Position numbers and translations under genes: made by a program. The notes below the pieces were generated by a model. That model searched no databases and was not told the origin of the DNA. It saw only the letters and a program-made list of their open reading frames with translations. Positions 1 through 17,196 of a stretch of 64,000 nucleotides of DNA are shown here, one piece after another. The stretch is taken from the IMG/VR virus record IMGVR_UViG_3300012983_003032. The stretch is one strand, 5' to 3'. The stretch's first letter is position 1, and each line of letters begins with the position of its first letter. Source of the DNA: a virus.

Positions 1-292
1 CTTTTGCAATACAATCTCCAATAAAATATCCATAATGTTTTGCTAAAAGGAACTTTGACCATTCCTCTGGGATATCTTTTTCCTTGATTAAATTGAGCAT
101 ATCTGCCATAAGACCATGTGCTGCAATTTCATCGTCTGTCCAAACAGTGCCATCTTTCTTTTCATCCTCAGGTTTTTCGTATGTATACTCACCTTCAACT
201 TCCTTAAAATAAACACCTACTGCAAGTGTTCCAGCACCAGGACCATATGGTACAATACCATATCCTACTTTTTCAATTTCAAGTTTTGCCAT
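1..292 (-). CDS. hypothetical protein, truncated by window edge (N-terminus at 292, continues past coordinate 1)
   Basis: Minus-strand ATG at 292-290 preceded by GAGAGGA SD-like sequence. Reading frame stays open to the window edge (MAKLEIEKVGYGIVPYGPGAG...). Not in ORF table because it lacks a stop within the window. Confidence 0.4.
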   Translation of the reverse strand, partial: MAKLEIEKVGYGIVPYGPGAGTLAVGVYFKEVEGEYTYEKPEDEKKDGTVWTDDEIAAHGLMADMLNLIKEKDIPEEWSKFLLAKHYGYFIGDCIAK

Positions 293-308
293 TGTTTAAA
301 GTTCCTCT

Positions 309-806
309 CTATTTTAATTTTAATTTTTCTGTATCAATCTGTTCTTTTATATACTCAAGATACATATTATAATTCTTTTCTGTTAATACTTTATCCTCTG
401 GTAAAGAAAGTGGAATTAATTCCTGCATTTCTTCACCTTTAACATTTACAATCATCGCGGTACCCGATAATGTAGATATTGAAGGATTAAGACCAATAGA
501 TTTACAATAGTTCATAATATCATTAAAGAACTTCTCTTGAAGTAATAATGATTTTGAGTCATTTGACTTTGTAAGGTTAAGATTCTTGGAGCTTAAAGAA
601 TCTACTACAATAGGTTCTCTAATGATACTTTGACTAACACCAGCACATCCACTTAATATAAGTAGAAGTACTGAAATTCCTAACATAACAAAATCAATAG
701 TAATATTACTAGACTTATCTATAAGTAATACTACTGATGAGACTCCAATTATAATTGTAACTTGACTTAAAATACTACTAAGAAACAGTAATATCTTTTG
801 CTTCAT
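309..806 (-). CDS. small membrane protein (two N-terminal hydrophobic helices)
   Basis: 165-aa ORF; residues ~5-60 are two long hydrophobic stretches, remainder polar. No recognised motif. Confidence 0.45.
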   Translation of the reverse strand: MKQKILLFLSSILSQVTIIIGVSSVVLLIDKSSNITIDFVMLGISVLLLILSGCAGVSQSIIREPIVVDSLSSKNLNLTKSNDSKSLLLQEKFFNDIMNYCKSIGLNPSISTLSGTAMIVNVKGEEMQELIPLSLPEDKVLTEKNYNMYLEYIKEQIDTEKLKLK

Positions 807-866
807 ATTGAAGACACACCTCCATATTTTTGTATTAAATTAGTTATTATACAGAAATCCTAAAAA

Positions 867-1115
867 TTAACGAATTTCTGCCCAATAGTAATGTCCACCA
901 GAACAGTGGTATTTCGCATAGACTTTATCACCTTTCTTCTTATAAGGTGTATTGGTTCTCCACGCAACCTGAACTTGTACGGTAGAATCTCCAGCTTTTA
1001 CAGCCTCAACACACTTAGCACATTTTACAGAATATCCATAATGGATATACTCACCCGCAAAAACGCTAAACATAATAGCAATTAAAATAATTGTAATAAT
1101 ACTTCTCTTCTTCAT
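867..1115 (-). CDS. small secreted/membrane-anchored Cys-containing protein
   Basis: 82-aa ORF with N-terminal signal-like hydrophobic segment (MKKRSIITIILIAIMFSVFA) and Cys pairs (CAKC ... HCSGGH). Confidence 0.4.
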   Translation of the reverse strand: MKKRSIITIILIAIMFSVFAGEYIHYGYSVKCAKCVEAVKAGDSTVQVQVAWRTNTPYKKKGDKVYAKYHCSGGHYYWAEIR

Positions 1116-1121
1116 ATTTAT

Positions 1122-3230
1122 TTAGTCCCAAATTTCTCCACCATTACTATTAAATATCTTTTTCCACATTTCATTATCAATGTAGTCTTTATTCATTAAA
1201 GTATTTAATATTGCACCTTTTGCTGCAAGGTTATCCAATTGTAAATTATCAATACTATTTTTATAACACATAAAATAATATCTAACCGTATTTTTCTGAC
1301 CATAACGCCAAGTACGGCGTCTACTCTGTTCATAATAATTGTAGTTAAAAGTTCTTTCAATATAGATATTAAAAGTACATTCTGTAATAGTAACAGAAGT
1401 ATTCATAATATTTATACTTGCAATAATAATCTTTTTATTAGGGTCAGCTTGAAACTCCTTAATAACTCTATTCATATCTTGAGGTTTCATTCCAGCCTCT
1501 ACTACAACAGGATTATATTGTTTTAACTCTTTAACAAGAACTTCTTTTGTTGCAGGGTGATTGTACCATACAATACCTCTTTCTTTATTATCATTAACCC
1601 TGTCAATTAAAATATCTTTAGTAATCCTTAATTTATAACTATCTTTAGTATAGTCATATTCTCTTATTTTGTCCTGCAATTCTGTAGGAAACTTGTCAAA
1701 AGAAGGAGTTTTTAAAATACAACTTGGATTATCAACTGCAAGTTGGAAAATACCAAACATATTTAATATTTCGTCTTTAGTATTCTTTGTACCAAGTTGT
1801 TTCTTATTCTGTACCATTCTTAATTGTTCTTTAACAAATCCCTCATATATTTCTCTTTGAATAGGGTCCATATCTATATGAATAGTAGGTACATCATAGT
1901 CTAATGGTAACTCCAAACATTCCCTTGCCAAACGTTTTGTACCATAAGTCCTTAATAAGACTTGGTTTAATTTTGCAATTTTCTCCATATTCCAATTATC
2001 AGGGTTTATTGCATTTTCATTGAAACTAGTACCTAACGCACCAAATGATTTTATCCAGTTTGTATATGGTCTACCTTGAATAAGTTGTTTATCCAATATG
2101 TACAAAGGTGCATATAATTTTTCATATTTATCTGCTAATGTACCAGTAAATAAATATCTAAAGTCAAAAAAGGGTAAATTTATCTTAAAGTATTGAAATC
2201 TAACAGACCTTGGGTCTGCCAAACTATGACATTCATCTAGGAATATACCCATATTTTTTCCATTTGACCATTTTTCCCAATCTATATATGACTTACCAAT
2301 ACCGTCTTTTAATTTTCTGGAAGGGTGCATTCCTTCTTTTAATGAGGATAAGTTCTTTTTCTTTATTATTACTTCTCTATCAATTTTAAGAAAGTCATTT
2401 AATATTTTTGTTTTAGTTTTATAATCTGGTGCAGAAGTATATTTAGGGTCTTTTCTATAAAATTCTCTCTTTCCTGCAAGAAAATCTTTTAAATCTTTTT
2501 CTGCTAATTCAATTTTCTTAGGTAGTCTCTTAGGGGCATTTACTATATCATAATAATAGTCATTGACACTTACAAAAGTGTCATATGGCATAATTATAAT
2601 TCTATATGGATACTTTTCTATATTAAAGATATCTCTATCCTCAGTTTCAGTAATAGAGTTAATTACATATATATCCTCGTGTTTTATAAGTTTTCCGTGT
2701 TTACATAACTCGTCTTTTAGATTATATACACCTGCTCTGGTCGAGAATATGATACATTTATCAATAAAATTATAAAACCATAAGTTTGATATCAATGATG
2801 TAAGTGCATATGACTTCCCAAGACCCATATCCCAATTGAATAAAAATCTATTTAAATTTATAGCTCTTGCAATATCTTGTTTCTGATAATTTTCATTAGG
2901 GTGGATTCCTAATAGTGGTGGATAATTTAGCAAGTCCCATTTAGGGATTACTCTAAATGGGGCAGATTTTAATTCTTTTAAAGACTCAAAATATCCCGCA
3001 ACTTGTCTTCTTGTAAGTTCAGAAATCTCTATAGGAATATTATCAACTGCCAAGTCGTCAATAATAGAGTCAAGGTCTGCGGGTAGAGCATTAAAACATT
3101 TTGTGGTTTTATTAAAAGTACACCCACTTAAAAAAAGACGTTCATTAGCTTCCTGAAATTCTTCAGGAGAGTAAGACCTATTCTTAAGGCAAAGTTTTGA
3201 GTGGGCAGCGTCAAACGTAATTTCAACCAT
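1122..3230 (-). CDS. SNF2/Rad54-family DNA-dependent ATPase/helicase
   Basis: 702 aa. Walker A-like DMGLGKSY, DExH box LDECHSLADP, and helicase motif VI QSRRRTWRYGQ typical of SNF2 ATPases. Confidence 0.85.
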   Translation of the reverse strand: MVEITFDAAHSKLCLKNRSYSPEEFQEANERLFLSGCTFNKTTKCFNALPADLDSIIDDLAVDNIPIEISELTRRQVAGYFESLKELKSAPFRVIPKWDLLNYPPLLGIHPNENYQKQDIARAINLNRFLFNWDMGLGKSYALTSLISNLWFYNFIDKCIIFSTRAGVYNLKDELCKHGKLIKHEDIYVINSITETEDRDIFNIEKYPYRIIIMPYDTFVSVNDYYYDIVNAPKRLPKKIELAEKDLKDFLAGKREFYRKDPKYTSAPDYKTKTKILNDFLKIDREVIIKKKNLSSLKEGMHPSRKLKDGIGKSYIDWEKWSNGKNMGIFLDECHSLADPRSVRFQYFKINLPFFDFRYLFTGTLADKYEKLYAPLYILDKQLIQGRPYTNWIKSFGALGTSFNENAINPDNWNMEKIAKLNQVLLRTYGTKRLARECLELPLDYDVPTIHIDMDPIQREIYEGFVKEQLRMVQNKKQLGTKNTKDEILNMFGIFQLAVDNPSCILKTPSFDKFPTELQDKIREYDYTKDSYKLRITKDILIDRVNDNKERGIVWYNHPATKEVLVKELKQYNPVVVEAGMKPQDMNRVIKEFQADPNKKIIIASINIMNTSVTITECTFNIYIERTFNYNYYEQSRRRTWRYGQKNTVRYYFMCYKNSIDNLQLDNLAAKGAILNTLMNKDYIDNEMWKKIFNSNGGEIWD

Positions 3231-3264
3231 AATATATTATATTAACGTCAAGAAATACTATAAT

Positions 3265-3858
3265 TTAGTGTAGTGACTTTAAGATTTTCTTGAAATCTAA
3301 TATCTTCATTTCATTAGCGTCTAAACAAACGTTAATGTACTTAGAAGTGTCAATATTCTTTGTTGGCCACTTCTCAAGGTCTACAGGTAATTCAGTAATT
3401 CCGTTTTTTCTTGCTGCCTTGAGATTCATTTCATAGTTTTCCATATCAACTTTAAAATACTTTTCGTCCACATTTGTATTATGTGTATGTCCGTGAATAT
3501 TTACAAAGTTTGAGTCTGTAACCATATAAACAGGTTCGTGAGATAAAATAATGTTTTCGTCAAATAATATCGGTTTGTTATAAACATAGTCAAAACCTAA
3601 CTTTTCAAAAAAGTCGCAAATGTTTTTACTATGAGTATGTTTTCTAACCATACGAAAAACGTCTTTATCATGGTTACCAATTACATAACAAAGTGTTCTA
3701 TTTTTACCCTTCATACGAGATACTATGCCTTTGAGAAGACTAAATGCGTTTGGATTAGTAGTGATAAGTCTACTAAATGCAAAATCCCCCAAGTTCCAAA
3801 CTACAGTATCTGGTGTATCTGGCAATTTATCAAACTCTTTTAAGATATCCTCGTTCAT
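3265..3858 (-). CDS. calcineurin-like metallophosphoesterase
   Basis: Motifs NLGDFAF (GD), GNHD, SHEP and HGHTH in canonical order. The first D-x-H motif lies upstream, beyond an in-frame TGA (see next feature). Confidence 0.75.
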   Translation of the reverse strand: MNEDILKEFDKLPDTPDTVVWNLGDFAFSRLITTNPNAFSLLKGIVSRMKGKNRTLCYVIGNHDKDVFRMVRKHTHSKNICDFFEKLGFDYVYNKPILFDENIILSHEPVYMVTDSNFVNIHGHTHNTNVDEKYFKVDMENYEMNLKAARKNGITELPVDLEKWPTKNIDTSKYINVCLDANEMKILDFKKILKSLH

Positions 3859-3987
3859 TTTAAAAATATCTTCTTCACTTTCCCAATTATAATTTCGGTC
3901 GCAATATTTAATTATATTACCGTGGAAAAAATGAAGTCAAAGGTCAGAAGTTATAAACATCTTATTTGCATTAAAAATATCTAACAT
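3859..3987 (-). other. in-frame upstream extension of the metallophosphoesterase, interrupted by a TGA stop (MLDIFNANKMFITSDL*LHFFHGNIIKYCDRNYNWESEEDIFK)
   Basis: Reverse-complement of 3859-3987 reads in the same frame as the downstream CDS. It contains the missing phosphoesterase motif I (SDL.LH..HGN) split by TGA at 3937-3939. Confidence 0.4.
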
Positions 3988-4029
3988 CTGACAATCCTCC
4001 TTACGGTATAGTATTATACCGATTTTAAG

Positions 4030-5181
4030 TTAATTTTTCAATACAACAGGTTCTTCCTTAAAGAAAAAGTTTTTAGGAACTAAATCTGTTATAAATCCAG
4101 TCTGTCTGGTCGACTGGCAGAACCAACCACCACCTTTAAATACATATAATTTCCAACTCTTTTTCATTGCTAAGTCTGCATTAACTTTCATTTTTATTAA
4201 AACTTTTCCTGAACCATATTTATATTTAATACCTTTTAAATCACACCAAGACGCTACTGTTTCTGCAATTTTTGAGTTGGTTAATTGTTTTTTATTACAA
4301 GACCATTTTGCCTTATCTAACTCATATGTGGCTAATGCCGCCCACTCTTGTAGTTTTTCTTTAATAGTACATAATTGACCATTAATATATATTACAGGAT
4401 TATCCATATAGTCTTCATAGTTATCAATAATATATTGTAGCATTATTACTCTAAGTCGTTTAAGGTGGTAGTATAATTGTGTATCTGAAACGGCTTTTTC
4501 AGTAATAAATTTTCTGACTCTTTCCTTACATTCAACATATGAAAAACTGCCCTCAAAAGTAACATCCCATAATGACATCATTTCAATATTTTCCATTGCT
4601 GATTTACAGCAATTGGAAAGAGTTTTTTTCTTTAATTTTAGTAACTGTTTCTGCTTATAAGCCTCCTGTTCGTAGAAAGGCTTATCTTCATATGCTAATG
4701 TAGAATCAAAATCTGGGATAAGGTCTAATGACTTTCCATATAAGAAGTCCTGTCCTTTATCAGACATTATAAATTTTACATACCTTTGATAGAGCATTTG
4801 AAGTTTATTAAGATTTTGTTTTAAGGTTTTTGTTTTATTTGACCAAGCTTTAACCAAAAAATACATTATTGGGGTAATATCCTCAACTGACGCATTGTAT
4901 ATTTTGGCAAAATCCTTATCCCTATTAAGAAATCCGATAACTTCGGAGTCTAGTATAGAAACACTCTGTCCTGTTAGAGGGTAAGAAGATAACCATTGAA
5001 TAAATAAATCTTGATTATTAAGAAAAATTTCCGAAGCACCTGGAACTTTTTCTATCATACTATTATATATGTACCTACTTGCATATTCATCGTTCTGTGA
5101 AATTGTATTAAAAATAAGATACTCTTTCTCTGTAAGAGTAGGTAGTATAGAAACGTAATCATATTTTGTCATATATAACAT
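4030..5181 (-). CDS. hypothetical protein (383 aa)
   Basis: Long intact ORF, coding-like composition, no recognised motif. Confidence 0.55.
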   Translation of the reverse strand: MLYMTKYDYVSILPTLTEKEYLIFNTISQNDEYASRYIYNSMIEKVPGASEIFLNNQDLFIQWLSSYPLTGQSVSILDSEVIGFLNRDKDFAKIYNASVEDITPIMYFLVKAWSNKTKTLKQNLNKLQMLYQRYVKFIMSDKGQDFLYGKSLDLIPDFDSTLAYEDKPFYEQEAYKQKQLLKLKKKTLSNCCKSAMENIEMMSLWDVTFEGSFSYVECKERVRKFITEKAVSDTQLYYHLKRLRVIMLQYIIDNYEDYMDNPVIYINGQLCTIKEKLQEWAALATYELDKAKWSCNKKQLTNSKIAETVASWCDLKGIKYKYGSGKVLIKMKVNADLAMKKSWKLYVFKGGGWFCQSTRQTGFITDLVPKNFFFKEEPVVLKN

Positions 5182-5221
5182 ATTAACAAATTAGCTATGT
5201 TTAATTTTTGTGAAAATATAA

Positions 5222-5440
5222 TTATGATATAGTATAATTTATAGAAACTTTTTTGATTTCACCTCTACATAATTCTTTTTGTTTATTTGTGGCTTGCCAT
5301 TTCATACCTACACAGTGTTGGTCAAAATTATAAGGGAATGGTTTCCAAGCATTTTGAAAAAAATCCCAACAATGTTCCATATTATTGAGTTTTGAAATAA
5401 TACAATAACCCTCAAAATTACCTTTCAAAATTGCCTCCAT
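5222..5440 (-). CDS. hypothetical small protein (72 aa)
   Basis: ORF only. Contains Cys/His/Trp-rich stretch (CWDFFQNAWKPFPYNFDQHC). Confidence 0.3.
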   Translation of the reverse strand: MEAILKGNFEGYCIISKLNNMEHCWDFFQNAWKPFPYNFDQHCVGMKWQATNKQKELCRGEIKKVSINYTIS

Positions 5441-5570
5441 TTTTCTATATATTAATTAATATTAATATATTAATATATCTTTTAGATTACATTAATGTTA
5501 TAATTGAACTTTTGCAAAAATTCGGTTTTTAAGGTGAAATTCTTAAAAATTTAAAGTTAATATATATCTT
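5441..5570. promoter_or_regulatory. divergent intergenic region with AT palindromes and sigma70-like -10 (TATAAT at ~5502)
   Basis: tatattaattaatattaatatattaatatat is internally symmetric (TATATTAAT / ATTAATATA). ttagat..N11..tataat lies ~60 nt upstream of the + strand gene. Confidence 0.3.
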
Positions 5571-5912
5571 ATGAAATCAAAAGAAAGAAAATTATACAAA
5601 GAACAATTAAAACTTTATGAAAGTTTAACTATGGTAGGAGAATGTAAGTGTGGAGGCACATTAACAGTTCTTTTAGACTCAAAGCCTGAAAATAGGTTTA
5701 ATGTATATTGTGGAGGACCAATACATTGTAACTCTATTTCAGATATTAGGTTTCCTAAGGCAGGAGACGAATATTTTGTAGAAAATGGAGAGTCACCAGT
5801 TGCAATGCTATGTAGACTTTATAAGGAAAAGAAGAGTGTTAATATTTCTGATGAAGAAATTGAAAATACACCTATTTCACCTATTGTGAATAAGGAACAC
5901 GGAGACTTGTAA
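5571..5912 (+). CDS. zinc-ribbon-like Cys-rich protein (113 aa)
   Basis: CKCGG ... CGGPIHC ... C pattern. ORF sits immediately upstream of, and is translationally coupled to, the nuclease gene. Confidence 0.5.
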   Translation: MKSKERKLYKEQLKLYESLTMVGECKCGGTLTVLLDSKPENRFNVYCGGPIHCNSISDIRFPKAGDEYFVENGESPVAMLCRLYKEKKSVNISDEEIENTPISPIVNKEHGDL

Positions 5913-5914
5913 CT

Positions 5915-6823
5915 ATGGCAAATGGAAATTGGTCGGCAAGTAGAATTTCTACATTCAATGCTTGTCCTCTTAAATATTATTATACATATGTAAAAAAGTG
6001 GGTTAGTTCTGTACCAGCAGATAATACTGCTGCAAATAAAGGTTTAGCATTTCATGAAACTGTAGAAAATTACACTACTGGTATGGATAGAGACTCTGTT
6101 CACAAAATAATTGAGAGTAAAATACAGGAGTATCACGTTGATACTAATGAGTATGACGAGTTTGGTGCCCTTGAAAGATTTTACCTATTTTGGGACGAAT
6201 ATATTGCACCTAGGGAAAAAGAGGGATTTGTTGTCAAACAAGAGTCTTGGGCTTCAAATAAAGAAGAGTCTACAAAGTTTAGTGCTAATCCTAAACTCTT
6301 AGACGGACCTCTTAATGAACCTTTTGTTGGTGCATTGGACTTATTTTTGGAAAATCCAACTACTGGAGAATATATTATTTTTGACTATAAATCAGGAAAG
6401 TCACCTGTAGCAACAAAATATCGTCCTCAGTTAATTTTGTATGCTTACCTTATTGGTCTTAATAAGGGGTATACTCTTGCACAGATGGCTGAAAAATGTA
6501 AATTATTTGTATTTTTTCCATTAGCAAAGACTGAGGATATTGATAAACTTATTGACCCTAAGGATAAAATGTTTGCTTCTGTAAAGGCATTACGTCTTAC
6601 AGAAAAAGATATTGAAAATACTATTAACGACTATAAGAAAACAATAGAAAATATCCATAATATGGATTGGGAAAATCTAGACGCTAATAAGTTGGCAACT
6701 TCAAATTTTTTATGTCAGTGGTGTGACTATTGTGGTTCCAGACCAAATCGTGGTGGATTTATGGGTTGTCCTGCTTCAAAGGATTTTATGACAAATAACG
6801 CTATTTTTACACTTAAGAGCTAA
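5915..6823 (+). CDS. Cas4-like / RecB-family PD-(D/E)XK nuclease with C-terminal Cys cluster
   Basis: N-terminal SASRISTFNACPLKYYY (Cas4/DUF83 signature with first Cys), IIFDYKSGK (D-x-K active-site motif) and QLILYAY (QxxxY). C-terminal CQWCDYC...C cysteines are consistent with a Fe-S cluster. Confidence 0.75.
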   Translation: MANGNWSASRISTFNACPLKYYYTYVKKWVSSVPADNTAANKGLAFHETVENYTTGMDRDSVHKIIESKIQEYHVDTNEYDEFGALERFYLFWDEYIAPREKEGFVVKQESWASNKEESTKFSANPKLLDGPLNEPFVGALDLFLENPTTGEYIIFDYKSGKSPVATKYRPQLILYAYLIGLNKGYTLAQMAEKCKLFVFFPLAKTEDIDKLIDPKDKMFASVKALRLTEKDIENTINDYKKTIENIHNMDWENLDANKLATSNFLCQWCDYCGSRPNRGGFMGCPASKDFMTNNAIFTLKS

Positions 6824-6829
6824 TTATAT

Positions 6830-7045
6830 ATGGCAGAAATTTCTATTGAAGAATATATGGAAAATACAAAACAATTGTCAGAAAAAGCAGTTGTTTTAGA
6901 CAATTTGTTATCTATATTAGACTCGTCAGATGGTCGTATTAGAGATATTAATTGGGTTGAAAATATTAGGGATATGTTAAACTCCTTAAAAGAAGAAGTA
7001 ACTGAGTTATTAGTGAAAAATGCAAAGGACTTCATAAACCCCTAA
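6830..7045 (+). CDS. hypothetical small acidic protein (71 aa)
   Basis: ORF follows the nuclease stop by 6 nt; helical, acidic. Confidence 0.35.
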   Translation: MAEISIEEYMENTKQLSEKAVVLDNLLSILDSSDGRIRDINWVENIRDMLNSLKEEVTELLVKNAKDFINP

Positions 7046-7059
7046 GTGAAAAATGTTAT

Positions 7060-7312
7060 TTTGAGTAATATGGTGTTCCACTACCAAGTTTGTTGAAGAC
7101 CTAGAGTCCAGTAAATAAAACGTTAAGAAACGAGGAAGATTATTCACAGGAACCGTAAAAGGTACGGGTGAAGTGGGGAACCCGCTTCCCGTTAGTACTG
7201 TGTCAGCATGAAGATAAAAGGACGCTTTTATTCTTACTGTAAGGCTGTAAGAAAGTAGGTGCTACCGACTACTTTAAGTTTTCTAGGAACATCGGGCATT
7301 TGTTTTATTTTG
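7060..7312 (+). ncRNA. GC-enriched structured non-coding region (candidate phage sRNA), function unknown
   Basis: No ORF of 60 aa or more on either strand. Local GC is clearly above the ~30% background. Several perfect hairpins: ccgta-aaagg-tacgg; cgggtgaag...cttcccg; ttcttac-N9-gtaagaa; agtag-N9-ctact. Followed by an intrinsic terminator. Confidence 0.3.
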
Positions 7313-7359
7313 CCTCTCTAAAAAACAGGTAATGCTGAATTAGAGAGGATTTTTCTTTT
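7313..7359 (+). terminator. rho-independent terminator (cctctcta-N20-tagagagg + attttTctttt)
   Basis: 8-bp perfect stem followed by T-run. Confidence 0.6.
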
Positions 7360-7381
7360 AAATACTTAATACTAAATATAT

Positions 7382-7597
7382 ATGACAATAGTACATAAAT
7401 CAGAAGAAATAATAAATGAAATAGTTAATAAGAATAATAATATTATTATTATAAATAATAACATCAACAATTGTAATGCTTGTAATTACTGTAATACTTG
7501 TAATAGTATTAATTCTTGTGATACTTGTAACGCTTGTAATAGTTGTCAAAGTGGATATAATCAGAATGACTTTGTACAAGACATAAAAGTTGTTTAA
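7382..7597 (+). CDS. questionable ORF encoding Asn/Cys repeat peptide (CNACNYCNTCNS...CDTCNACNSC)
   Basis: Coding potential arises from a 9-bp DNA tandem repeat. An equally repetitive ORF exists antisense (7400..7624). SD absent. Confidence 0.25.
   Translation: MTIVHKSEEIINEIVNKNNNIIIINNNINNCNACNYCNTCNSINSCDTCNACNSCQSGYNQNDFVQDIKVV
7472..7552. repeat. 9-bp tandem repeat, 9 units (tgtaatNNt consensus)
   Basis: tgtaatgct tgtaattac tgtaatact tgtaatagt attaattct tgtgatact tgtaacgct tgtaatagt tgtcaaagt. Confidence 0.8.
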
Positions 7598-7608
7598 GAT
7601 AGGAATAT

Positions 7609-8580
7609 ATGAAAAAATTAACAATTATAAGTTTGTTTTGTGATAAGGACTTTCAATTTTTACCTTCTTTATTAGATAATATAGATAAAAAAGTTATTTG
7701 TGATTTTGAACTAATTTTAGTTGATAATAGAGAAGAGTTTAAAAATACAGAAATACCCGCAATATCTATTTTTCAGAAATATCATTCTTGTAAAGTTTTA
7801 TCAAAAGGTTATAATTTATGTCAATTATTCTCAAAAAAGTATGCTTTAAGTTATGCAGTAGGTGAATATGTTTGGTTTATAGACGGAGATGACGAAATAG
7901 AGGACACAGTCTCTAATATAATTTTAAACATATGTGAAAGTGATATAATAGTATATAATTATAGATGTAATTTTAGTAAAGATGAAATATGTTATGAAGA
8001 AATAAGTAATAATTATCAAGTCTTAAAAAACTTGAATAGTTTTAGAAATAATGATTACTTAAAAAAAGTTACTCCAACTTGTTGGAATAAATGGTTTAAA
8101 AAAAGTTTATTAGATAGTGTATTTACTACTATACCAGATAATATAAAAGTTTCTTGTAATGAAGATGTATTTATTTGTAGTGCATCCCTAAATAGAGCAA
8201 ACTCAATCCAAGAAATACCTTTTTACGTTTATTGTAACTTTGCGTATAGAGGCATATCTAATAATAAATATATAGACTCTTTGGAAAAATTTAAAATAAT
8301 TTTTACAGGGTGGGAAGAGTCAATGAAACTTTTTAAAAAAGAGTTTCCGAATGATTGTGCATTGTTTAGTTATATGTCTAAAAGAAATAATGATATCTTA
8401 TATTTTTTACGTAGAGTTAAAGCGTCTTCTAAAGAATTATGGTCAGAAGAATTGGATTTTTTAAATAAAGTATTTAACTCTACTGAACTAATAGAGGCTA
8501 GTCATAAAATTAAAGATATAGTATTGCAAAGTTTTATAAAAAAATATTTTTCTGAAAATCTATATATTGATAAATATTGA
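7609..8580 (+). CDS. GT-A fold glycosyltransferase (family 2-like)
   Basis: N-terminal IISLFCDKD...ELILVDNREEF and DxD-type motif YVWFIDGDDEIE in the position expected for GT2 enzymes. Confidence 0.55.
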   Translation: MKKLTIISLFCDKDFQFLPSLLDNIDKKVICDFELILVDNREEFKNTEIPAISIFQKYHSCKVLSKGYNLCQLFSKKYALSYAVGEYVWFIDGDDEIEDTVSNIILNICESDIIVYNYRCNFSKDEICYEEISNNYQVLKNLNSFRNNDYLKKVTPTCWNKWFKKSLLDSVFTTIPDNIKVSCNEDVFICSASLNRANSIQEIPFYVYCNFAYRGISNNKYIDSLEKFKIIFTGWEESMKLFKKEFPNDCALFSYMSKRNNDILYFLRRVKASSKELWSEELDFLNKVFNSTELIEASHKIKDIVLQSFIKKYFSENLYIDKY

Positions 8581-8700
8581 AGCTATGCTTGGCTAAAGAC
8601 CAAGCATATTCCCTAACATTTTAGCGTGTTAGGAGATTGTTTCGTGCATTACCCTTAACTCGCATCTGCGAGTGCCAGATTAGCCAACAATGAAGTTGAC
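8581..8700 (-). ncRNA. putative omegaRNA (reRNA) scaffold overlapping tnpB 3' end and right-end hairpins
   Basis: By analogy with characterised TnpB systems, the guide RNA derives from the tnpB 3' end plus RE. Two hairpins are present at 8585-8633. Not verified. Confidence 0.3.
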
Positions 8701-10064
8701 AACACGCTACCAGTGTCTTTTGACAGCTTCTTTTCAGAAGCCTTTTCCTGGCTTTCCTCAGCTTCCCTGAGTACTTTTATAGCTTCAGTTTTTATATTAA
8801 CTGCTGCATTTTTGTCTCGTTGATGAATTTGTCCACATTCAGGACAAATCCAATTCTCCAAATGGAATTTCTTAACTTCTGGATTCTTAAAACCACAACA
8901 AGAACAAGTTTGTGAAGAGGCAAAGAATTTGTTTACTTTGATGATATGGCATCCATATCTTTCGCCTTTCCATTTTAATTTAGAAACGAAAGTTGACCAA
9001 GAGATGTCTTGGTAATTCTTTGCGTTTCTTGAGCCTTTCATCATTCCTTGGATAGACAAATCTTCAATTCCGATAAGTTGGTTTTCCTTTGTCAGTCTCA
9101 AAGATTCTTTTTCTATCCAATCTAAACGACAATTTGCAATATGCTCTTCCAAAGAAGCAATTTTGATTCTAATTTTTTCTTTGTTTTTAGAATTTTTAAT
9201 TTTTCTTGCATATTGTCTTTGAAGATGAGAAAGTTGAGAAAGATGTTCTTGTTTTTGCTTTTTGAATCCATAATCAGCTTTAGCTGACTTTTCGTTCGAG
9301 TCTATGTACATATCATCACAGTCAAAGTCTAAACCTATGACTTGGTTTTCGTCTAAGTCTTTAACTTTGACTTTCTGCTTAAAGTCTAAATTGACTTCAA
9401 ACAAAATTGTGATGTAATATTTTCCGTTAGGTGTTCTTGAGCAAGTGTATGAACAAACTTTAGTTCTGTTTTTATACCATTTTGGTAAGTTTCTGTGAGA
9501 AAACTTAATTTTCCCAATTTTGGGAAGTTCTACAGTTTTAGAGTTCCAATCTAAGAAGTTTTGTTTCATCTGTGAGTCTTTGAAGGAATTTTTAGCTTTC
9601 TTGGAATGGAATTTTGGCTTTTCTGATTTTCCGGAAAAGAAATTGCTATAAGCAGTTCTTAAATTCATAACTGCATTTGCTTTTCCTTGACCATTAGCTT
9701 CCTTCAAAAAAGGAAATTGTTGAGTCAATTCTGAAACTTTTGGTTCGTGGTATTTCTTATATTCAGAATTCGTTATTTTTCTAATAGCTTCAAGTTCGGC
9801 CTTTAGATTTTTGATTTCTTGCTTATTTTCTTTTGAATTTTTTTGCAGCTCTTCGAGCTTTTGAACTTTTTCGTAATAGTCAAATTCTTTTCTTAATGGA
9901 ACTATGGCGTTTTCGTAGAATTGATTTTTTGAATTTAAGAGGTAGTTGTAGATGAATCTAACACAACCAAAAGTCTTGTCCAATTTAGACTTTTGTTCTT
10001 GAGATGGGTTTAGTCTGAGCTTAAGTGCTAAATTTACACTTCTGTAACTAATTGTATTAGACAT
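8655..10064 (-). CDS. tnpB: TnpB (IS605 OrfB) RuvC-like RNA-guided endonuclease homolog
   Basis: 469 aa. RuvC-I (IGLDFD), RuvC-II (IGIEDL), zinc finger CSCCGF...CPECG and RuvC-III (HQRDKNAAVNI) in canonical order. Confidence 0.9.
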   Translation of the reverse strand: MSNTISYRSVNLALKLRLNPSQEQKSKLDKTFGCVRFIYNYLLNSKNQFYENAIVPLRKEFDYYEKVQKLEELQKNSKENKQEIKNLKAELEAIRKITNSEYKKYHEPKVSELTQQFPFLKEANGQGKANAVMNLRTAYSNFFSGKSEKPKFHSKKAKNSFKDSQMKQNFLDWNSKTVELPKIGKIKFSHRNLPKWYKNRTKVCSYTCSRTPNGKYYITILFEVNLDFKQKVKVKDLDENQVIGLDFDCDDMYIDSNEKSAKADYGFKKQKQEHLSQLSHLQRQYARKIKNSKNKEKIRIKIASLEEHIANCRLDWIEKESLRLTKENQLIGIEDLSIQGMMKGSRNAKNYQDISWSTFVSKLKWKGERYGCHIIKVNKFFASSQTCSCCGFKNPEVKKFHLENWICPECGQIHQRDKNAAVNIKTEAIKVLREAEESQEKASEKKLSKDTGSVLSTSLLANLALADAS

Positions 10065-10092
10065 TCAATAATCATTCCTTATTGTTTGTTTA

Positions 10093-10133
10093 GAAAGCTA
10101 TGAGAATCCCCATTCTTGTAGCTTTCGTTTTTT
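10093..10133 (+). terminator. plus-strand intrinsic terminator-like hairpin inside the IS, antisense to tnpB 5' region
   Basis: gaaagcta...tagctttc stem followed by gttttttc. Confidence 0.4.
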
Positions 10134-10331
10134 CTATTTAATTAGTAGAAACTTTTTGAAAAGGTTCTTATTTAATTAGTTAACTAGTTAACTACTTGTT
10201 AATATTTAATTTTAGAGCCATTCACGTGCTAAGCTAAAGACTTAGCACTTATCTGGCTCATTTTTTATATAATTTTTTAAATCTGTTAGTAAATATTGTT
10301 GTTTTTAAGAAATCTTCGTTAATATATTTTT

Positions 10332-10775
10332 ATGAGAATATCAGATTTTAATATAGAAATGAATTGGCCTAACGGTGGTGAAATAGTGTGGAGTAAATTA
10401 ACACCCCATGTAGTACCTTATTTGTCAGATGACTTTAAGTATGAGTCATTTTATCATCAGCAAGGTATATCAAAACCCATACCACCAAAATCTTTTAATC
10501 TTACTTTTAATTTAGGTCAAGATGCAGATATTTATAATTACCTAAAAAGCTTTTTTACGTCAAAGTCAAGAAAATATTATGGATTATACAGTCTTAAAGA
10601 TAAGGGATGGATATATATACATAATAGAATGTTGTATGCTAAAAATAAAAATGTACTTCGGAAAAAGTACATAAAAATGATTAATAATTTAATTCCATTA
10701 TATACTTATGAAGAAGATAGTTTGATTAAATATCAGCATGATAAAAATGTTGTTATTAAGCCATTTTGGTTGTAG
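10332..10775 (+). CDS. hypothetical protein (147 aa)
   Basis: ORF with coding-like composition. Confidence 0.45.
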   Translation: MRISDFNIEMNWPNGGEIVWSKLTPHVVPYLSDDFKYESFYHQQGISKPIPPKSFNLTFNLGQDADIYNYLKSFFTSKSRKYYGLYSLKDKGWIYIHNRMLYAKNKNVLRKKYIKMINNLIPLYTYEEDSLIKYQHDKNVVIKPFWL

Positions 10776-11275
10776 AGGTTCAAATGATTGGTGCAATATT
10801 CTGTTTAGGACTTGCTACTCTTATAAGTCACTATTTCATTAAGTCTCAATTAGACTTGGATTTAACAAAAGTTTGTAATGAACGAAATCAAAAAATTGAT
10901 AGAAGCCCAAATTGTAAAATATATATGATTTTGGCACACTATAATACCACACAAATGAAGATTCCTATGTCTTTTACGAGTTTAACTGATTATAAACCTC
11001 CTAGATGGGAGATATCTAAAAATCCATTTTCATTTAATGGTATGGAATTTAAATCCGCAGAAGTTAAACCTAATCCTTGGAGTCATCAAATAATTAATAA
11101 TGCAATTGAAACAATCAAGCAAAATTTTAGAATGACAGTGGGGATAAATACTGACGAAATTCAATATGACCTTTATCTATTAAGGGGTAATGATTTTTTG
11201 GACGGATACACAAGTAAAATTGTAAATGGCACAGAACAGGATATTAGAAATTACAGTTTTTCGGAAGATATGTGA
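10766..11275 (+). CDS. hypothetical protein with N-terminal TM helix (169 aa)
   Basis: N-terminal MIGAIFCLGLATLISHYFI hydrophobic segment. Confidence 0.4.
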   Translation: MVVEVQMIGAIFCLGLATLISHYFIKSQLDLDLTKVCNERNQKIDRSPNCKIYMILAHYNTTQMKIPMSFTSLTDYKPPRWEISKNPFSFNGMEFKSAEVKPNPWSHQIINNAIETIKQNFRMTVGINTDEIQYDLYLLRGNDFLDGYTSKIVNGTEQDIRNYSFSEDM

Positions 11276-11284
11276 GGTTAAAAA

Positions 11285-11761
11285 ATGAAACTGAGGACTA
11301 TTATTCTTACAGACCCCGTTAAAGCTGTAAATAAAATAAATGGTGAAAAAACACTCCAGTTCTTTGAAGAAAGTGTTATCAGCCATATAACAGACGTTAC
11401 CTCATTTTATGGAAATGAGTGTCTGTATTTCTTAGCCTATAAAGATAATAATCTTGTAGGTGTGGCAGTTGTGAGCGAAGAACGTACAGATATTAAAGGA
11501 CCTATGTCTGCCCCTTTTATTAGGGAGTTTGGTACAGTTAACTATACCAAAACTTGTAAGTATGCCAAAAAGGGGATAGGTGAGGAACTTTTAAATCATA
11601 TTATAAAACGAGTTGGGAACAGACTTACATTATCCTGTTTAGACAGTAATTCCGAACAATTTTGGAGATATATCGGTGAAAAGAAAGGATTGAAAGTTGA
11701 AGAAATTGGAAGAACTGTATGGGGTACACCAACTTTGTATTTTCGGGATTTTAAGGGTTAA
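11285..11761 (+). CDS. GNAT-family N-acetyltransferase (probable)
   Basis: SD GAGGT upstream. Acetyl-CoA binding-like KKGIGEELLNHII motif (R/Q-x-x-G-x-G/A) in a beta-alpha context. Confidence 0.5.
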   Translation: MKLRTIILTDPVKAVNKINGEKTLQFFEESVISHITDVTSFYGNECLYFLAYKDNNLVGVAVVSEERTDIKGPMSAPFIREFGTVNYTKTCKYAKKGIGEELLNHIIKRVGNRLTLSCLDSNSEQFWRYIGEKKGLKVEEIGRTVWGTPTLYFRDFKG

Positions 11762-11794
11762 AATTGCTATATTATAAATGTATAGGAGAAAATT

Positions 11795-13498
11795 ATGGCA
11801 AAGTCACAGAAAAAAATTAAAGAATGTAAACATAATGGCACTCGTTTTCCAGACCTTTTTAAGAGTAGAGGATTTACTCTTGCGGGTGTGTCACTTTATA
11901 ACAGTGATGTTGACTCTGCAGAAGAAATGCTTTGGCATTATGCAGCAAAGTTAGACACAGACTATGTTAAGAATGAAGTTTTTAACAAAAACTTTTATTT
12001 GTGTCTTAAAGAACAACTTCCTGAAACTTTAAGAAATATAAAGTTTCCTGATGGATTTATGTCTGTTCTTACAGAAATGAAGAAGTTGCAGGAAAAAGAA
12101 AAAGAAGAAAAAACACAGTATAAAAAAGACCATAAAGAAGAACTTAAAAAAGAGGCAGAAGACCTTAAAGAAGAATATGGATATGCAATTCTTAATGGTG
12201 AAAAACAGCCTCTTATGTCAAATTTGGTAGAAGGCCCTGGGATTTTTATTGCTCGTGGAGATGCACCCCTTCTTGGTATGTGGAAATACCGTACTATGCC
12301 AGAAGATGTAACAATTAACTATATTGGACCAAAAGAAGAAACTCCAAAAGCACCTGAAGGACATCATTGGAAGAAAGTAACTAATAATCAGGTATATTAT
12401 ATTGCTTCTTATGAAGTAGATATCGGACACATTACAACAAAGAATAAAGAAATTCGTTTTGGTAGTGGTTCTTCTGTAAAGGCTGATGCAGACCAAAAGA
12501 AGTTTGATAAGGCAGTAAATCTTTTACAGCATAAAAAAGAAATGGAACAGTATATTCGTGAGAACCTTACAAACCCTGACCCTAAAATTGCTGAGTGTGC
12601 TCTTATTTCTTGGTTATTGCAAGAAACAGGTATTCGTATAGGTAATTCTAAAAATGTCGAAATTGAAGCCGATACTGTTGGGGCGTCTACTTTGAAAAAA
12701 GAAAATATTTGGGCAGATGACGGAAAACTTTATCTTAATTTTATTGGTAAAGATTCGATTGTTTATAAAAATGAAATTGAAGTACCAAAGTATATTGAAA
12801 CTGCAATTAATCGAAAAGTTAAAAAGGCTAAAGATGGTGAACAGATTTTCAGTGTAGACTCAAATGATGTTAACAAATTCTTAGGAGCTTGTGTGGAAGG
12901 ATGTACTCCAAAGTTGTGGCGTACTGCAATTGCAACTGAACTTCTTGTAAATGCCTTTAAGGACCAACACGTTAAAAAGTCTATGACTGTAACTGAAAAA
13001 CTTCGTGCTTTTGACCTTGCAAATCTTGAAGTTGCGAAAAAATTAAATCATAAAAAAGCTGTATCAAAGAATTATGACTCACAGATTGAAAAGTTGGATT
13101 CTACTATTGAATCAGATGAGAATAAGTTTAATGAACTTAAAATTAAATTAACTGCTGAAATTAAAGAGCTTGATAAAAAAATTAAAAAAGCAAAAGAACT
13201 TGGTCTTGATAGAAATGTAAAATCTTTTAAGGAAACTAAAAAGAAAAAACAGGAACGTCTTACAAAGGCAGAAGAAAGTCTTAAAAACAAAAAGTTTAAG
13301 AGAGAATTCAAAGAACAGACAATGGATATTGCCATTGGTACGTCAAGAACAAATTATTGTAGTCCAAAAATTGCTTATAGTATCTGTAAGGACTTGGATA
13401 TTCCAATTGAAAAGATTTATTCTAAGTCTCTTTTGGAAAAGTTTAAGTGGGCAGAAAATGTAAGTAAGGATTATTGGAGAAAGTACCCAGATGTATAG
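11795..13498 (+). CDS. type IB DNA topoisomerase, eukaryotic (nuclear TOP1)-like with linker domain
   Basis: Recalled human TOP1 segments align along the protein: LKEEYGYAILNG...EGPGIFIARGDAPLLGMWKYRTMPEDVTINY with the TOP1 core; ADTVG and FIGKDSI; KLWRTAIATELL with KVFRTYNAS; and the catalytic-Tyr region AIGTSRTNYCSPKIAYSICKDLDIPIEKIYSKSLLEKFKWA with [41 protein letters not shown]. A ~100-aa coiled-coil linker precedes the active-site Tyr. Confidence 0.9.
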   Translation: MAKSQKKIKECKHNGTRFPDLFKSRGFTLAGVSLYNSDVDSAEEMLWHYAAKLDTDYVKNEVFNKNFYLCLKEQLPETLRNIKFPDGFMSVLTEMKKLQEKEKEEKTQYKKDHKEELKKEAEDLKEEYGYAILNGEKQPLMSNLVEGPGIFIARGDAPLLGMWKYRTMPEDVTINYIGPKEETPKAPEGHHWKKVTNNQVYYIASYEVDIGHITTKNKEIRFGSGSSVKADADQKKFDKAVNLLQHKKEMEQYIRENLTNPDPKIAECALISWLLQETGIRIGNSKNVEIEADTVGASTLKKENIWADDGKLYLNFIGKDSIVYKNEIEVPKYIETAINRKVKKAKDGEQIFSVDSNDVNKFLGACVEGCTPKLWRTAIATELLVNAFKDQHVKKSMTVTEKLRAFDLANLEVAKKLNHKKAVSKNYDSQIEKLDSTIESDENKFNELKIKLTAEIKELDKKIKKAKELGLDRNVKSFKETKKKKQERLTKAEESLKNKKFKREFKEQTMDIAIGTSRTNYCSPKIAYSICKDLDIPIEKIYSKSLLEKFKWAENVSKDYWRKYPDV

Positions 13499-13802
13499 AT
13501 TAAAATACACATATATGCAAATTAAAAAATACTTCCAGCAGAAAAAGTGTAAGCATAAGTACATTCTTATAAGGGACGTACATGGCGACGAGATAAACAC
13601 TTACTGCCAAAGTGTACGAAGTATTTGGAAATGTTTATAGCGTGTTGCGTAAAAGTCCCACATCTTTAGTGTGGGACATGTAGCAACACAAAGTCGTACT
13701 TTTGCTTTACGCCCAATGCTACTAAATATATAAAAGTTTATGCAAAATACAAAGAAAACCTAAAATGTATAAACTTTTGAGATAATATAATATTAAATAG
13801 AT

Positions 13803-14231
13803 ATGGCAAGAAAACTTGAAAGTTCAGCACATTCAAAGCATCTCATAATGTACCACTTGATATTTGTGGCAAAGTATAGAAGGAAGATATTTTCTTTCCA
13901 CGACTTTGGTGACGCTTTGAAACAAAAGTTTCTTGACATTTCTTCAAACTATGAGTTTTCAATAGATACAATAGACTTGGACTACTCTAAGCCAGACCAT
14001 ATACACATTCTTGTAAGAAGTATTCCTACATTGTCACCAGACCAAATAGTAAGAGTTCTGAAACAAGAAGCAAATATCTGGGCTTGGGATAACTATGGTC
14101 CTTGGCTCAAGAAGTTTTACCATAGAAGTCATCATCTCTTTACACGTGGATACTATTGTGGTTCAGTAGGAAATGTTTCCGCAGATACAGTAGCAAAATA
14201 CTTAGAAGACCAAGGGAGGAACGGATGCTAA
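13803..14231 (+). CDS. tnpA: IS200-like Y1 (HUH) transposase TnpA
   Basis: 142 aa. HUH motif HIHILV and C-terminal catalytic Tyr region (TVAKYLEDQ), size typical of IS200 TnpA. Confidence 0.85.
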   Translation: MARKLESSAHSKHLIMYHLIFVAKYRRKIFSFHDFGDALKQKFLDISSNYEFSIDTIDLDYSKPDHIHILVRSIPTLSPDQIVRVLKQEANIWAWDNYGPWLKKFYHRSHHLFTRGYYCGSVGNVSADTVAKYLEDQGRNGC

Positions 14232-15421: not shown

Positions 15422-15480
15422 TTTCGGCTCGTAAGCAACTATGGAATGTCCCAGGTCTTTAGCCTGGGGCAGCGTTCAAT
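15300..15480 (+). ncRNA. putative omegaRNA scaffold (tnpB 3' end plus RE hairpin)
   Basis: Inferred from TnpB biology. The RE hairpin sits 30 nt after the tnpB stop. Confidence 0.3.
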
Positions 15481-15504
15481 ACATGAAAATTACGAGGTGT
15501 TGAA

Positions 15505-15669
15505 ATGACAATTATTTTAGAAGACAGTGATATCCGTAAGATTATTGCAGAAAAGTTTAATGTAGACCCAGAAGATATAGATTTTTCAGCTAAAGAAAAA
15601 GAAGAAGACTGTGGAATCGTAGACGTTAAATTCACTGCAGTTTCTGCAGTAATTACCAAGGAGGTGTAA
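15505..15669 (+). CDS. hypothetical small acidic protein (54 aa; not in ORF table)
   Basis: ATG at 15505 preceded by GAGGTG. Ends TAA 2 nt before the next gene's GTG. Confidence 0.35.
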   Translation: MTIILEDSDIRKIIAEKFNVDPEDIDFSAKEKEEDCGIVDVKFTAVSAVITKEV

Positions 15670-15670
15670 T

Positions 15671-15988
15671 GTGAAAAAAAGAAATATTGGCCTTGTAACT
15701 AATAGTGGTTCTAGTGATTGGAGTAATTTTAACGAACTTTCCTATGCAGACCTTATAGCCTCATTAAAGAGTGACTATTTTTTCTTTAGAGTATCTGACC
15801 CAATGAATAATGGACATAGTGCAGAATATAGAGAAATCTTAAAAACTTGGTGGGGTGTAAAAGTAAAAACAGTTGGGTATATAGACTTGGACAAAGTAGT
15901 ATTTGACGGAAAAACATACTATTTTCCTGAGTCATCAAGAACTTACGGATGGAATTTATGCCAAAAGAAGAAAAAGAAAAAAGATTAA
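15671..15988 (+). CDS. hypothetical protein (GTG start, Lys-rich C-terminus)
   Basis: Strong SD AAGGAGG 7 nt upstream of GTG. Confidence 0.45.
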   Translation: MKKRNIGLVTNSGSSDWSNFNELSYADLIASLKSDYFFFRVSDPMNNGHSAEYREILKTWWGVKVKTVGYIDLDKVVFDGKTYYFPESSRTYGWNLCQKKKKKKD

Positions 15989-16272: not shown

Positions 16273-16298
16273 AAAACCACCCAAAAGGGTGGTTTTTG
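16271..16298. terminator. bidirectional intrinsic terminator (aaccaccc-aaaa-gggtggtt, flanked by A- and T-runs)
   Basis: Perfect 8-bp stem between convergent genes. Confidence 0.6.
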
Positions 16299-16301
16299 TA
16301 T

Positions 16302-17075: not shown

Positions 17076-17116
17076 ATAATTATATTAACAAAATTGAATC
17101 CTTCTAAGAATTAGAT

Positions 17117-17126: not shown

Positions 17127-17196
17127 GTAAGATAGTTTATCTTTTTTAAAATTACTTCGTGGCAACAAAAAATGTTGTATATATGGGAGAAAAGAG

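Follow-up and report, generated by a model that had tools for sequence, protein, structure and literature searches.

The 64,000-nt stretch of viral DNA held as IMG/VR record IMGVR_UViG_3300012983_003032 (hereafter the window; positions are counted from its first letter) contains, at positions 7071-7359 of the plus strand, a structured non-coding RNA element that is the subject of this work. A segment identical to the window is contained in a 425-kb metagenome contig from ENA (L009; L numbers designate the contigs compared here). The genes of the window encode a PD-(D/E)XK nuclease, an SNF2-type helicase, a eukaryotic-type topoisomerase IB, GroEL and two TnpB proteins, together with many open reading frames (ORFs) without a match in Pfam or PHROG. 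The GroEL protein has its best tblastn matches, 38% identical, in Bacteroides phages. The window is consistent with an uncultivated huge phage from gut and rumen communities, with a host that is possibly a member of Bacteroidota.

In the window the RNA closes a co-directional operon of orf113, the nuclease gene and orf71. The interval 7046-7381, flanked by a 71-aa ORF (6830-7045, plus strand) and a Cys-rich 71-aa ORF (7382-7597, plus strand), has TAA stops in all six frames, so recoding of TAG or TGA leaves it closed. Coding under alternative genetic codes was rejected for this reason. Across the window no sign of recoding was seen (ORFs cover 0.91 of it under the standard code, and 0.93 when either stop is recoded), and a 1-nt indel at column 69 of the alignment described below (A2), found between relatives that are 98.5% identical, also argues against coding. 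The preliminary description of this DNA, made from the letters of the window, had noted an ORF-free region of high G+C content with perfect stem-loops followed by a terminator. The region is indeed stopped in every frame, and its G+C excess is real but moderate: 42.2% for the core (7072-7301) and 38.7% for the span 7060-7359, against a window mean of 32.5%, which places the core at the 97.8th percentile of 230-nt segments (about +2.1 SD). Perfect inverted repeats are present at 7214-7220/7225-7231, 7231-7237/7247-7253, 7252-7258/7269-7275 and 7313-7321/7340-7348, the last being the 9-bp terminator stem with its U-tract; a 12-bp bulged hairpin lies at 7164-7192.

Related contigs were gathered via homologues of the nuclease and of a 147-aa ORF at 10332-10775 (orf147); one JGI contig (L030) was found by a DNA pattern scan. 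The RNA was detected by nhmmer in L001, L030, L027, L028/29, L018, L015/16, L017, L025/26 and L002/3, which with the window makes ten distinct sequences. The nine others come from gut and rumen metagenome contigs of the Logan, ENA and JGI assemblies. Homologues found with nhmmer and blastn span window positions 7058-7363, and the element is best set at 7071-7359 (plus strand), a folded RNA of ~290 nt ending in a terminator. A consensus structure was computed with RNAalifold on alignment A2. Its parts, in window positions, are as follows.

7071-7359, plus strand: whole RNA element (5′ hairpin, multi-helix core, linker, terminator hairpin, U-tract), set from homologues and consensus fold
7072-7085, plus strand: P0, the 5′ hairpin (GGU.../...ACC; 7072-7074 with 7083-7085), containing a covarying pair
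7088-7106, plus strand: 5′ strand of P1 (GUUUG-UG, internal loop AAGA, CCUAGAG), paired with 7281-7297 by RNAalifold
7107-7143, plus strand: junction strand J1/2, nearly invariant at 7107-7130 (UCCAGUAAAUAAAACGUUAAGAAA) and variable at 7131-7143
7114-7124, plus strand: 3-bp mini-hairpin within J1/2
7144-7203, plus strand: three-way domain closed by P2 (7144-7149 with 7198-7203)
7152-7154 with 7161-7163, plus strand: P2a, inside P2, with loop GUAAAA
7164-7177 with 7181-7192, plus strand: P2b, inside P2
7193-7197, plus strand: P2-domain junction UAGUA, 100% conserved, as is loop GUAAAA
7204-7251, plus strand: variable region (linker 7204-7213, P3 7214-7231, P4 7233-7251)
7252-7275, plus strand: P5 hairpin with an invariant 10-nt loop GUGCUACCGA (7259-7268)
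7281-7297, plus strand: 3′ strand of P1 (UUCUAGG, AA, CA, U, CGGGC)
7298-7312, plus strand: U-rich linker, poorly conserved, variable in sequence and length
7313-7359, plus strand: intrinsic terminator (stem 7313-7321 with 7340-7348, inner stem 7326-7328 with 7335-7337, U-tract 7350-7359)

P1 is thus a long-range helix, interrupted by two internal loops, that joins the ends of a ~210-nt core. A covariance model (R1) scores the core at 7087-7298 with 256 bits and finds no second copy within the window.

Within the close cluster of relatives the RNA core is 95-96% identical to that of the window, compared with 88-95% for the nuclease, 87-92% for topoisomerase IB, 76-81% for orf147 and 71-77% for orf71; no other element of the locus is as well conserved in this cluster. 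In the L002/L003 lineage the RNA is 71% identical to that of the window (29% substitutions) versus 80-82% for the nuclease and topoisomerase IB. By segment, the identity between the window and L002/L003 is:

P1 internal loop AAGA: 100%
Loop GUAAAA: 100%
Junction UAGUA: 100%
10-nt loop GUGCUACCGA: 100%
Junction AAGUU: 100%
Junction UCCAGUA..ACGUUAAGAA: 92%
Stems: changed, with compensation
P3/P4 region: 41%

In J1/2, 22 of the 24 positions of 7107-7130 are the same in the L002 lineage, and 7131-7143 is just 46% identical. The variable region 7204-7251 has 13 gapped columns against L002, which folds this region differently.

Conservation and covariation in related genomes, on which the structured-RNA reading of the preliminary description had been made to depend, were looked for and are both present. 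Standard pairs occupy 98.2% of cells on the consensus structure. Double changes are found in 11 pairs, against 2.3 ± 1.1 in shuffles (0 of 500 shuffles reach 11), and when the 3′ partners are slid by 1-3 columns only 0-3 double-change pairs are obtained. Compensatory support falls on P0, P1a, P2a (2 pairs), P2b (3), P5 (2) and the terminator (2). In P0, the pair at A2 columns 7/16 is U-A, U.G or C-G among the relatives. Pair changes in P1 are U-A to C-G in L002, U.G to C-G in L017 and G-C to G.U in L018. The P2 domain of L002 carries double changes in five pairs, with ACC/GGU becoming AUA/UAU and AAGUGGG/CCCGCUU becoming AAGAGGA/UCCUCUU. P5 has two compensatory pairs (A-U to G-C and U-A to C-G) below a loop, GUGCUACCGA, that is the same in 10 of 10 sequences. 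Pairing of the terminator is kept as well: its basal C-G is G-C in L002, its inner stem alternates between G-C and A-U in three sequences, and the U-tract is present in all aligned sequences.

The RNA is assigned to the plus strand, since G.U pairs, consensus energy and the U-tract all point this way. G.U is the pair in most sequences at 8 of 74 pairs, and three consecutive invariant U.G pairs in P1 fit the plus strand only; pairing is 98.2% of cells when read on the plus strand versus 87.7% on the minus strand; the consensus energy is -62.1 kcal/mol on the plus strand versus -50.6 on the minus strand; and a U-tract follows the hairpin on the plus strand only. The neighbouring genes of the conserved backbone are all on the plus strand.

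It could be argued that no functional RNA exists here, the conservation reflecting recent ancestry or recombination and the pairings being chance or DNA-level signals. Members of the close cluster resemble one another strongly throughout, the effective number of sequences is 0.86, and the folding energy of the plus strand is unremarkable against shuffles (z = -1.39 and -1.59), while the reverse complement of the window copy folds better than its shuffles (z = -3.28). Thermodynamics alone proves nothing, since the plus strand does not go beyond shuffles and the minus strand does better. What places the element beyond chance is conservation together with covariation. Despite 29% substitutions in the diverged lineage, 11 double changes keep pairs and the loops and junctions are spared; the slid-partner controls stay at 0-3; and in the close cluster the core is conserved above every flanking gene. 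We hold the absence of a functional RNA to be very unlikely.

The usual gene order in relatives is orf113, nuclease, orf68, orf130, RNA with terminator, orf147 (135-149 aa), orf163, GNAT and topoisomerase IB. The ORF that precedes the RNA in every relative is a Cys-containing one of 130-132 aa, without a match in Pfam, which overlaps the start of the RNA: P0 is encoded by its final codons, and its stop (UGA, window 7094-7096) lies within the 5′ strand of P1. The encoded C-terminus varies (SLCPVC, ILYQVC, SPYQVC) and the P0 hairpin is kept; in L002 the frame and the stop of the upstream ORF differ and the nucleotides are conserved. Because C-terminus, frame and stop vary while the nucleotides are kept, the constraint on the P0/P1 overlap is on the RNA and not on the protein. 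In the window this ORF is precisely deleted. When window 7046-7057 is set against L001, L001 1547-1921 has no counterpart, the RNA is kept from ~7058 on, and the last ~12 codons of the deleted ORF remain, forming the 5′ hairpin of the RNA. That the window lost the 130-aa ORF but kept the RNA from P0 on argues for selection on the RNA itself.

Since it is always the last element before the terminator at the end of the same operon, the RNA might be a passive 3′ untranslated region (UTR) that merely shields the nuclease-operon mRNA from 3′ exonucleases. Four contigs, L019-L022, retain the terminator alone, as such a role would allow: the RNA core is replaced there (e.g. L019 1-860) by another family-2 glycosyltransferase (GT2) gene of 331 aa and a 59-aa ORF, with the breakpoint at the 3′ end of P1. 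A terminator hairpin alone is normally enough for mRNA protection, and a shield needs neither invariant single-stranded segments of 10 and 24 nt nor conservation above that of the flanking genes; we regard purely passive protection as improbable. Since the core is missing from the 6 kb seen of L019-L022, the RNA is either dispensable or located elsewhere in these genomes.

An ORF of 135-149 aa, equivalent to window 10332-10775, directly follows the RNA in most relatives, 7 of the 9 other distinct homologues (those named as having this arrangement are L001, L030, L027, L028, L018, L015, L025 and the L002 clade). In the window, ~7364-10314, which carries the Cys-rich ORF, a GT2 gene and tnpB, is an insertion absent from most relatives. 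L017 and L019-L024 share the cassette of Cys-rich ORF and GT2. The gene next to the RNA in L017 is a convergent one of 286 aa on the minus strand, and the core is still 96% conserved there. Thus there are three kinds of downstream neighbour (orf147, Cys-rich ORF with GT2, and the convergent 286-aa gene), none with an informative annotation; PDB and NCBIfam searches of the neighbouring proteins were uninformative, and the AlphaFold model of orf147 (predicted local distance difference test, pLDDT, of 46) is too poor for use. Judged from these comparisons, the site just after the RNA terminator is an insertion hot spot, at which glycosyltransferase cassettes have repeatedly been inserted or have replaced what was there. 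The preliminary description had considered a regulatory RNA for the downstream glycosyltransferase. This part of its proposal is unsupported, because the Cys-rich ORF, GT2 and TnpB genes downstream are insertions absent from most relatives. The broader idea of a structured RNA ending in a terminator stands, on the strength of the homologues, the compensatory changes and the strand-specific G.U pairs.

The same description had offered a ribozyme or intron remnant, and this too is unsupported. Many group I introns of ~206 nt have been described in related gut huge phages (PMC12363816), and a small group I-like intron or ribozyme remnant between the halves of a split gene would be loosely compatible with the size and closing helix of the element. 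Remnants of this sort abound in crAss-like phages as well as in huge phages of the gut. In L018, moreover, the topoisomerase IB gene is split by a NUMOD3 ORF. None of the models for Intron_gpI (RF00028), GIR1 and other ribozymes matches either of two diverged copies at E<=10, and a conserved U.G is missing from the plausible 5′ splice site in P0. The flanking ORFs behave as independent genes: orf147 has its own conserved ATG, each of its 19 homologues measures 135-149 aa and none is fused, the upstream ORF has been lost from the window with RNA and orf147 intact, and a covarying terminator with its U-tract stands between the supposed exons. The idea of an intron between orf130 and orf147 was rejected on these grounds, and we consider any reading of this type highly unlikely.

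Guide RNAs of TnpB are structured molecules of 150-250 nt, rich in G+C, and one tnpB (8655-10064, minus strand) lies 1.3 kb away, with a second at 14156-15421. The element might accordingly be read as the omega RNA (reRNA), or a right-end remnant, of the adjacent IS200/IS605 TnpB element, with which it shares structure, G+C richness, similar length and a start inside the 3′ end of an ORF. The overlapped ORF here encodes the 130-aa protein and not TnpB. The RNA is 95-96% identical in relatives without TnpB at the locus (L001, L030, L018, L015, L025), it lies 1.3 kb from the 3′ end of the nearest tnpB and on the opposite strand, nothing else in the window resembles it, and the TnpB element has end hairpins and a structured 3′ region of its own. 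Distribution across relatives and strand refute a TnpB omega RNA, to which we attach almost no credence.

The terminator consists of a perfect 9-bp stem, CCUCUCUAA/UUAGAGAGG, followed by A-UUUUUCUUUU at 7349-7359. Its hairpin has an energy of -15.0 kcal/mol and the characteristics of a Rho-independent terminator. A simple terminator scanner missed it because the 18-nt loop exceeds the 8-nt limit of the scanner; compared with typical terminators the loop is unusually long and contains an inner stem. A weak anti-terminator candidate is formed by GGGCA (7294-7298) with UGCCU (7311-7315), which overlaps P1 and the three terminator pairs beside the U-tract. It has 5 bp and -4.9 kcal/mol, versus -15.0 for the terminator, and forcing it costs ~4 kcal/mol. 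L018 preserves a candidate pair by changing both of its sides (C to U at 7297 and G to A at 7312); in L002 the candidate is broken at 2 of 5 pairs and terminator pairing is maintained instead.

These elements allow a riboswitch-like transcription attenuator to be drawn, in which the P1-closed core senses a metabolite, an ion or a protein. P1 would leave UGCCU free to complete the terminator; without P1, GGGCA/UGCCU pairing would remove three terminator pairs and lead to read-through into orf147, GNAT and topoisomerase IB in relatives, or into the Cys-rich ORF and GT2 in the window. The order of core, 15-nt linker, terminator and same-strand ORF 22-35 nt later suits this scheme, as do the preserved pair of L018 and the short distance from the terminator to the next start codon, which leaves little space for a conventional promoter. 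The invariant junctions and covarying stems are typical of aptamers, and also of ribozymes and ribonucleoprotein (RNP) RNAs. The switch itself is the difficulty, since the 5-bp anti-terminator is weak relative to the terminator and broken in L002. Further, the gated gene is inconstant and defines no single pathway, and in L017 it is convergent yet the core is conserved; the upstream ORF has its stop codon inside P1; at E<=10 none of the known riboswitch models gives a match; and, as described next, orf147 seems to have a start signal of its own. We view attenuation as possible, if doubtful.

The candidate start signal is a motif, GTTAATATAT-N4-6-ATG, found ahead of orf147 (10318-10327) and of the nuclease-operon head (5556-5565). 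The same motif precedes unit-head genes at 3230(-), 5181(-), 5440(-), 5571(+) and 17075(-). As it stands before orf147 and other operon-head genes, a new unit is suggested to start after the terminator. The sites of the motif, GTTAATATAW, ahead of such genes are:

3237-3246, minus strand
5178-5187, minus strand
5447-5456, minus strand
5556-5565, plus strand
10318-10327, plus strand
17080-17089, minus strand
62370-62379, minus strand

The motif sits 4-6 nt (14 nt once) before the ATG of apparent unit-head genes in the replication-module part of the window. With at most one mismatch there are 31 sites (17.7 ± 4.2 expected), and at 8 of the 31 an ATG within 30 nt opens an ORF of at least 60 aa, compared with 8.7% at random positions. 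GTTAATATAW may act as a phage promoter from which near-leaderless mRNAs start, or else as a context for translation initiation.

Upstream of the RNA, a promoter-like sequence of Bacteroides type, TTTG-N19-TAATTTTG, lies ~9 nt before P0, inside the end of the 130-aa ORF, in L001, L030, L027, L028 and L025. L017 retains the TAAATTTG part alone.

A scan of the whole window with Rfam 15 (4227 models) at gathering thresholds, a check proposed in the preliminary description, gave no matches. The models cover riboswitches, ribozymes, T-box, RNase P, SRP, 6S, tmRNA, pRNA, Y RNA, GOLLD, ROOL, raiA, HEARO and IS605-orfB motifs, among others. At E<=10 the window and L002 copies gave unrelated weak matches that differ between the copies (HPnc0260, Clostridiales-2, L10_leader, DUF805, microRNAs). 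ARAGORN found no tRNA or tmRNA in the 64-kb window. INPHARED phages contain no match to the RNA by blastn nor to window 1-20000 by megablast, exact-pattern scans of IMG/VR gave no match to the RNA, and pattern scans of GTDB species genomes gave four chance matches without nhmmer similarity. Model R1 found no copy in the distant nuclease-bearing loci L005-L008, nor in the IMG/VR nuclease relatives L036 and L037, and the rest of the window contains neither similarity to the RNA nor a paralogue. A literature search on the conserved sequence blocks returned unrelated papers only. The RNA is known so far from one narrow phage clade and matches no catalogued RNA family. Since IMG/VR, the principal public set of viral contigs, gave no match, a survey based on a collection of this kind would probably have missed it.

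A T-box leader has a stem I with a specifier loop and a UGGN T-box sequence in the bulge of the anti-terminator. This candidate was rejected: there is no UGGN, the P5 loop caps a closed hairpin that precedes the terminator by 45 nt, and no match to the T-box model of Rfam was obtained. The loop GUGCUACCGA is only superficially like GGUGGNACCGCG. A reverse transcriptase system (retron or defense-associated reverse transcriptase) finds no counterpart either, no reverse transcriptase domain being present in the Pfam-scanned neighbours.

The closest general parallels are found among terminator-ended RNAs. Like bacterial and phage small RNAs (sRNAs), including those derived from mRNA 3′ UTRs, the element has a G+C-rich hairpin and a U-tract on the strand of the flanking genes. 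It further shares with this group the position at the 3′ end of an operon, use of the operon's terminator, and bounding hairpins at both the 5′ and 3′ ends. It differs from sRNAs in its ~210-nt multi-helix junction body with invariant loops, in place of a short seed-bearing molecule, and no pairing target was found. With riboswitches such as those for lysine, FMN and cobalamin it has in common a P1 that closes a multi-helix junction, conserved junctions and covarying stems, a terminator 15 nt past P1 and a same-strand ORF soon after; unlike them, it has no Rfam match at E<=10, an inconstant downstream gene, a 5-bp anti-terminator that is not conserved and an upstream ORF ending in P1. GOLLD, ROOL, raiA and HEARO/IscB omega RNA, orphan structured RNAs of large or medium size from phages and metagenomes, are likewise phage-borne, G+C-rich relative to the genome, complex in fold and conserved beyond their neighbours. 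No sequence or structure match to them was seen with Rfam 15, and GOLLD and ROOL are much larger. The element is a new family of a familiar general kind, a phage-borne, terminator-ended non-coding RNA of complex fold and narrow distribution.

Positions 7071-7359 (plus strand) encode a real structured RNA not catalogued before, and we put at about even the chances that it is a stable, tertiary-folded molecule that acts via its invariant loops and junctions. Anatomy, conservation, strand and operon-end position are shown by the results above; transcription, stability and mode of action we infer as follows. The RNA would accumulate on its own, as a stable species delimited by P0 at one end and the terminator hairpin at the other, an arrangement usual for stable small RNAs. 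It would arise either as the processed 3′ end of the operon transcript or from a transcript starting just upstream of P0. It would then act in trans through its tertiary fold, binding a protein or forming part of an RNP, with AAGA, UCCAGUA..ACGUUAAGAA, GUAAAA, UAGUA and GUGCUACCGA making up the surface to which a protein or small ligand binds. The identity of the downstream gene would not matter to its function, because the core is 95-96% identical before orf147, before the Cys-rich ORF with GT2 and before the convergent gene of L017; it is not a glycosyltransferase-specific leader. Searches for targets complementary to the invariant loop and junction gave nothing convincing: loop-pattern matches at no more than two mismatches number 11 (3.7 ± 2.0 expected), and outside the RNA none has less than one mismatch.

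Several results weigh against a stable trans-acting RNA. The folding energies given above set the plus strand within its shuffles and favour the reverse complement. Compensatory changes come almost all from one diverged lineage (L002/L003), and sequence diversity is low at the effective number already quoted. P1b, P2, P3 and P4 have no compensatory support, being invariant, changed on one side or unalignable in L002. The core architecture is thus supported by the covariation but not proven helix by helix, because the support is almost entirely from one lineage and the effective number is so small. The promoter-like sequence upstream of P0 is present in only 5 of 10 sequences, being absent in the window, L018/L015 and L002, and the window shows no enrichment of the Bacteroides-type promoter motif (TTTG-N19-21-TAnnTTTG). 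The start, level and processing of the RNA are likewise predictions. To these are added the absence of the core from the 6 kb seen of L019-L022 and the riboswitch-type layout of P1-closed core, 15-nt linker, terminator and same-strand ORF 22-35 nt on.

A more specific and tentative proposal, which we find rather unlikely as it stands, is a new RNA class of a lineage of huge gut phages: either a riboswitch gating read-through from the nuclease operon into orf147, GNAT and topoisomerase IB, or an RNP subunit or decoy used during infection, in both cases with the GUGCUACCGA loop and the ACGUUAAGAA junction as the recognition surface. Gut huge phages have not been cultivated, and orphans make up most of their gene content; at this replication-module locus conservation is highest in an RNA and not in a protein. 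The element is a candidate new riboswitch, ribozyme or RNP RNA that would extend the short list of complex structured RNAs of phages. It is small enough for direct biochemical testing, and samples that contain it are public.

Neighbouring genes provided further observations. The 71-aa ORF at 7382-7597 is a Cys/Asn-repeat ORF (core NNCNACNYCNTCNSINSCDTCNACNSCQSGY) located directly before the GT2 gene (7609-8580). The same pair is found in L017, L019 and L024, with core CNACYNMCNLCNLCNTCNTCNTCNACNACQSGY. By its gene arrangement the pair could be a cassette for a glycosylated peptide, i.e. a glycocin-like RiPP (ribosomally synthesized and post-translationally modified peptide).

Next to it lies a TnpB-only IS200/IS605-type element, ~8585-10260 (tnpB 8655-10064, minus strand), absent at this site in relatives. 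Its ends carry similar hairpins with CUAAAGAC loops (~8583-8607 and 10226-10250), and its G+C-rich structured 3′ region (z = -2.8) is probably its guide RNA. A complete IS200/IS605 element follows, with a Y1 transposase TnpA (13803-14231) and TnpB (14156-15421). The highest G+C peak of the window (51%, 15249-15478) coincides with the 3′ end of the second tnpB, the place expected for a guide RNA; the Rfam IS605-orfB motif was not called at the peak.

The topoisomerase IB gene (11795-13498) encodes N-terminal, core and C-terminal domains of the eukaryotic type. No tblastn match to it was found among 50,697 GenBank phage records. In L018 (3478-5458) a 301-aa ORF that matches NUMOD3 faintly interrupts the gene, which suggests insertion of a homing endonuclease, an intron or an intein.

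At the RNA itself, contig L031 begins (1-40) with an end palindrome (GGAATGTTCCACA...TGTGGAAC) joined at the start of P4, replacing the 5′ two-thirds of the RNA; the junction is either an assembly artefact or a rearrangement within the RNA.

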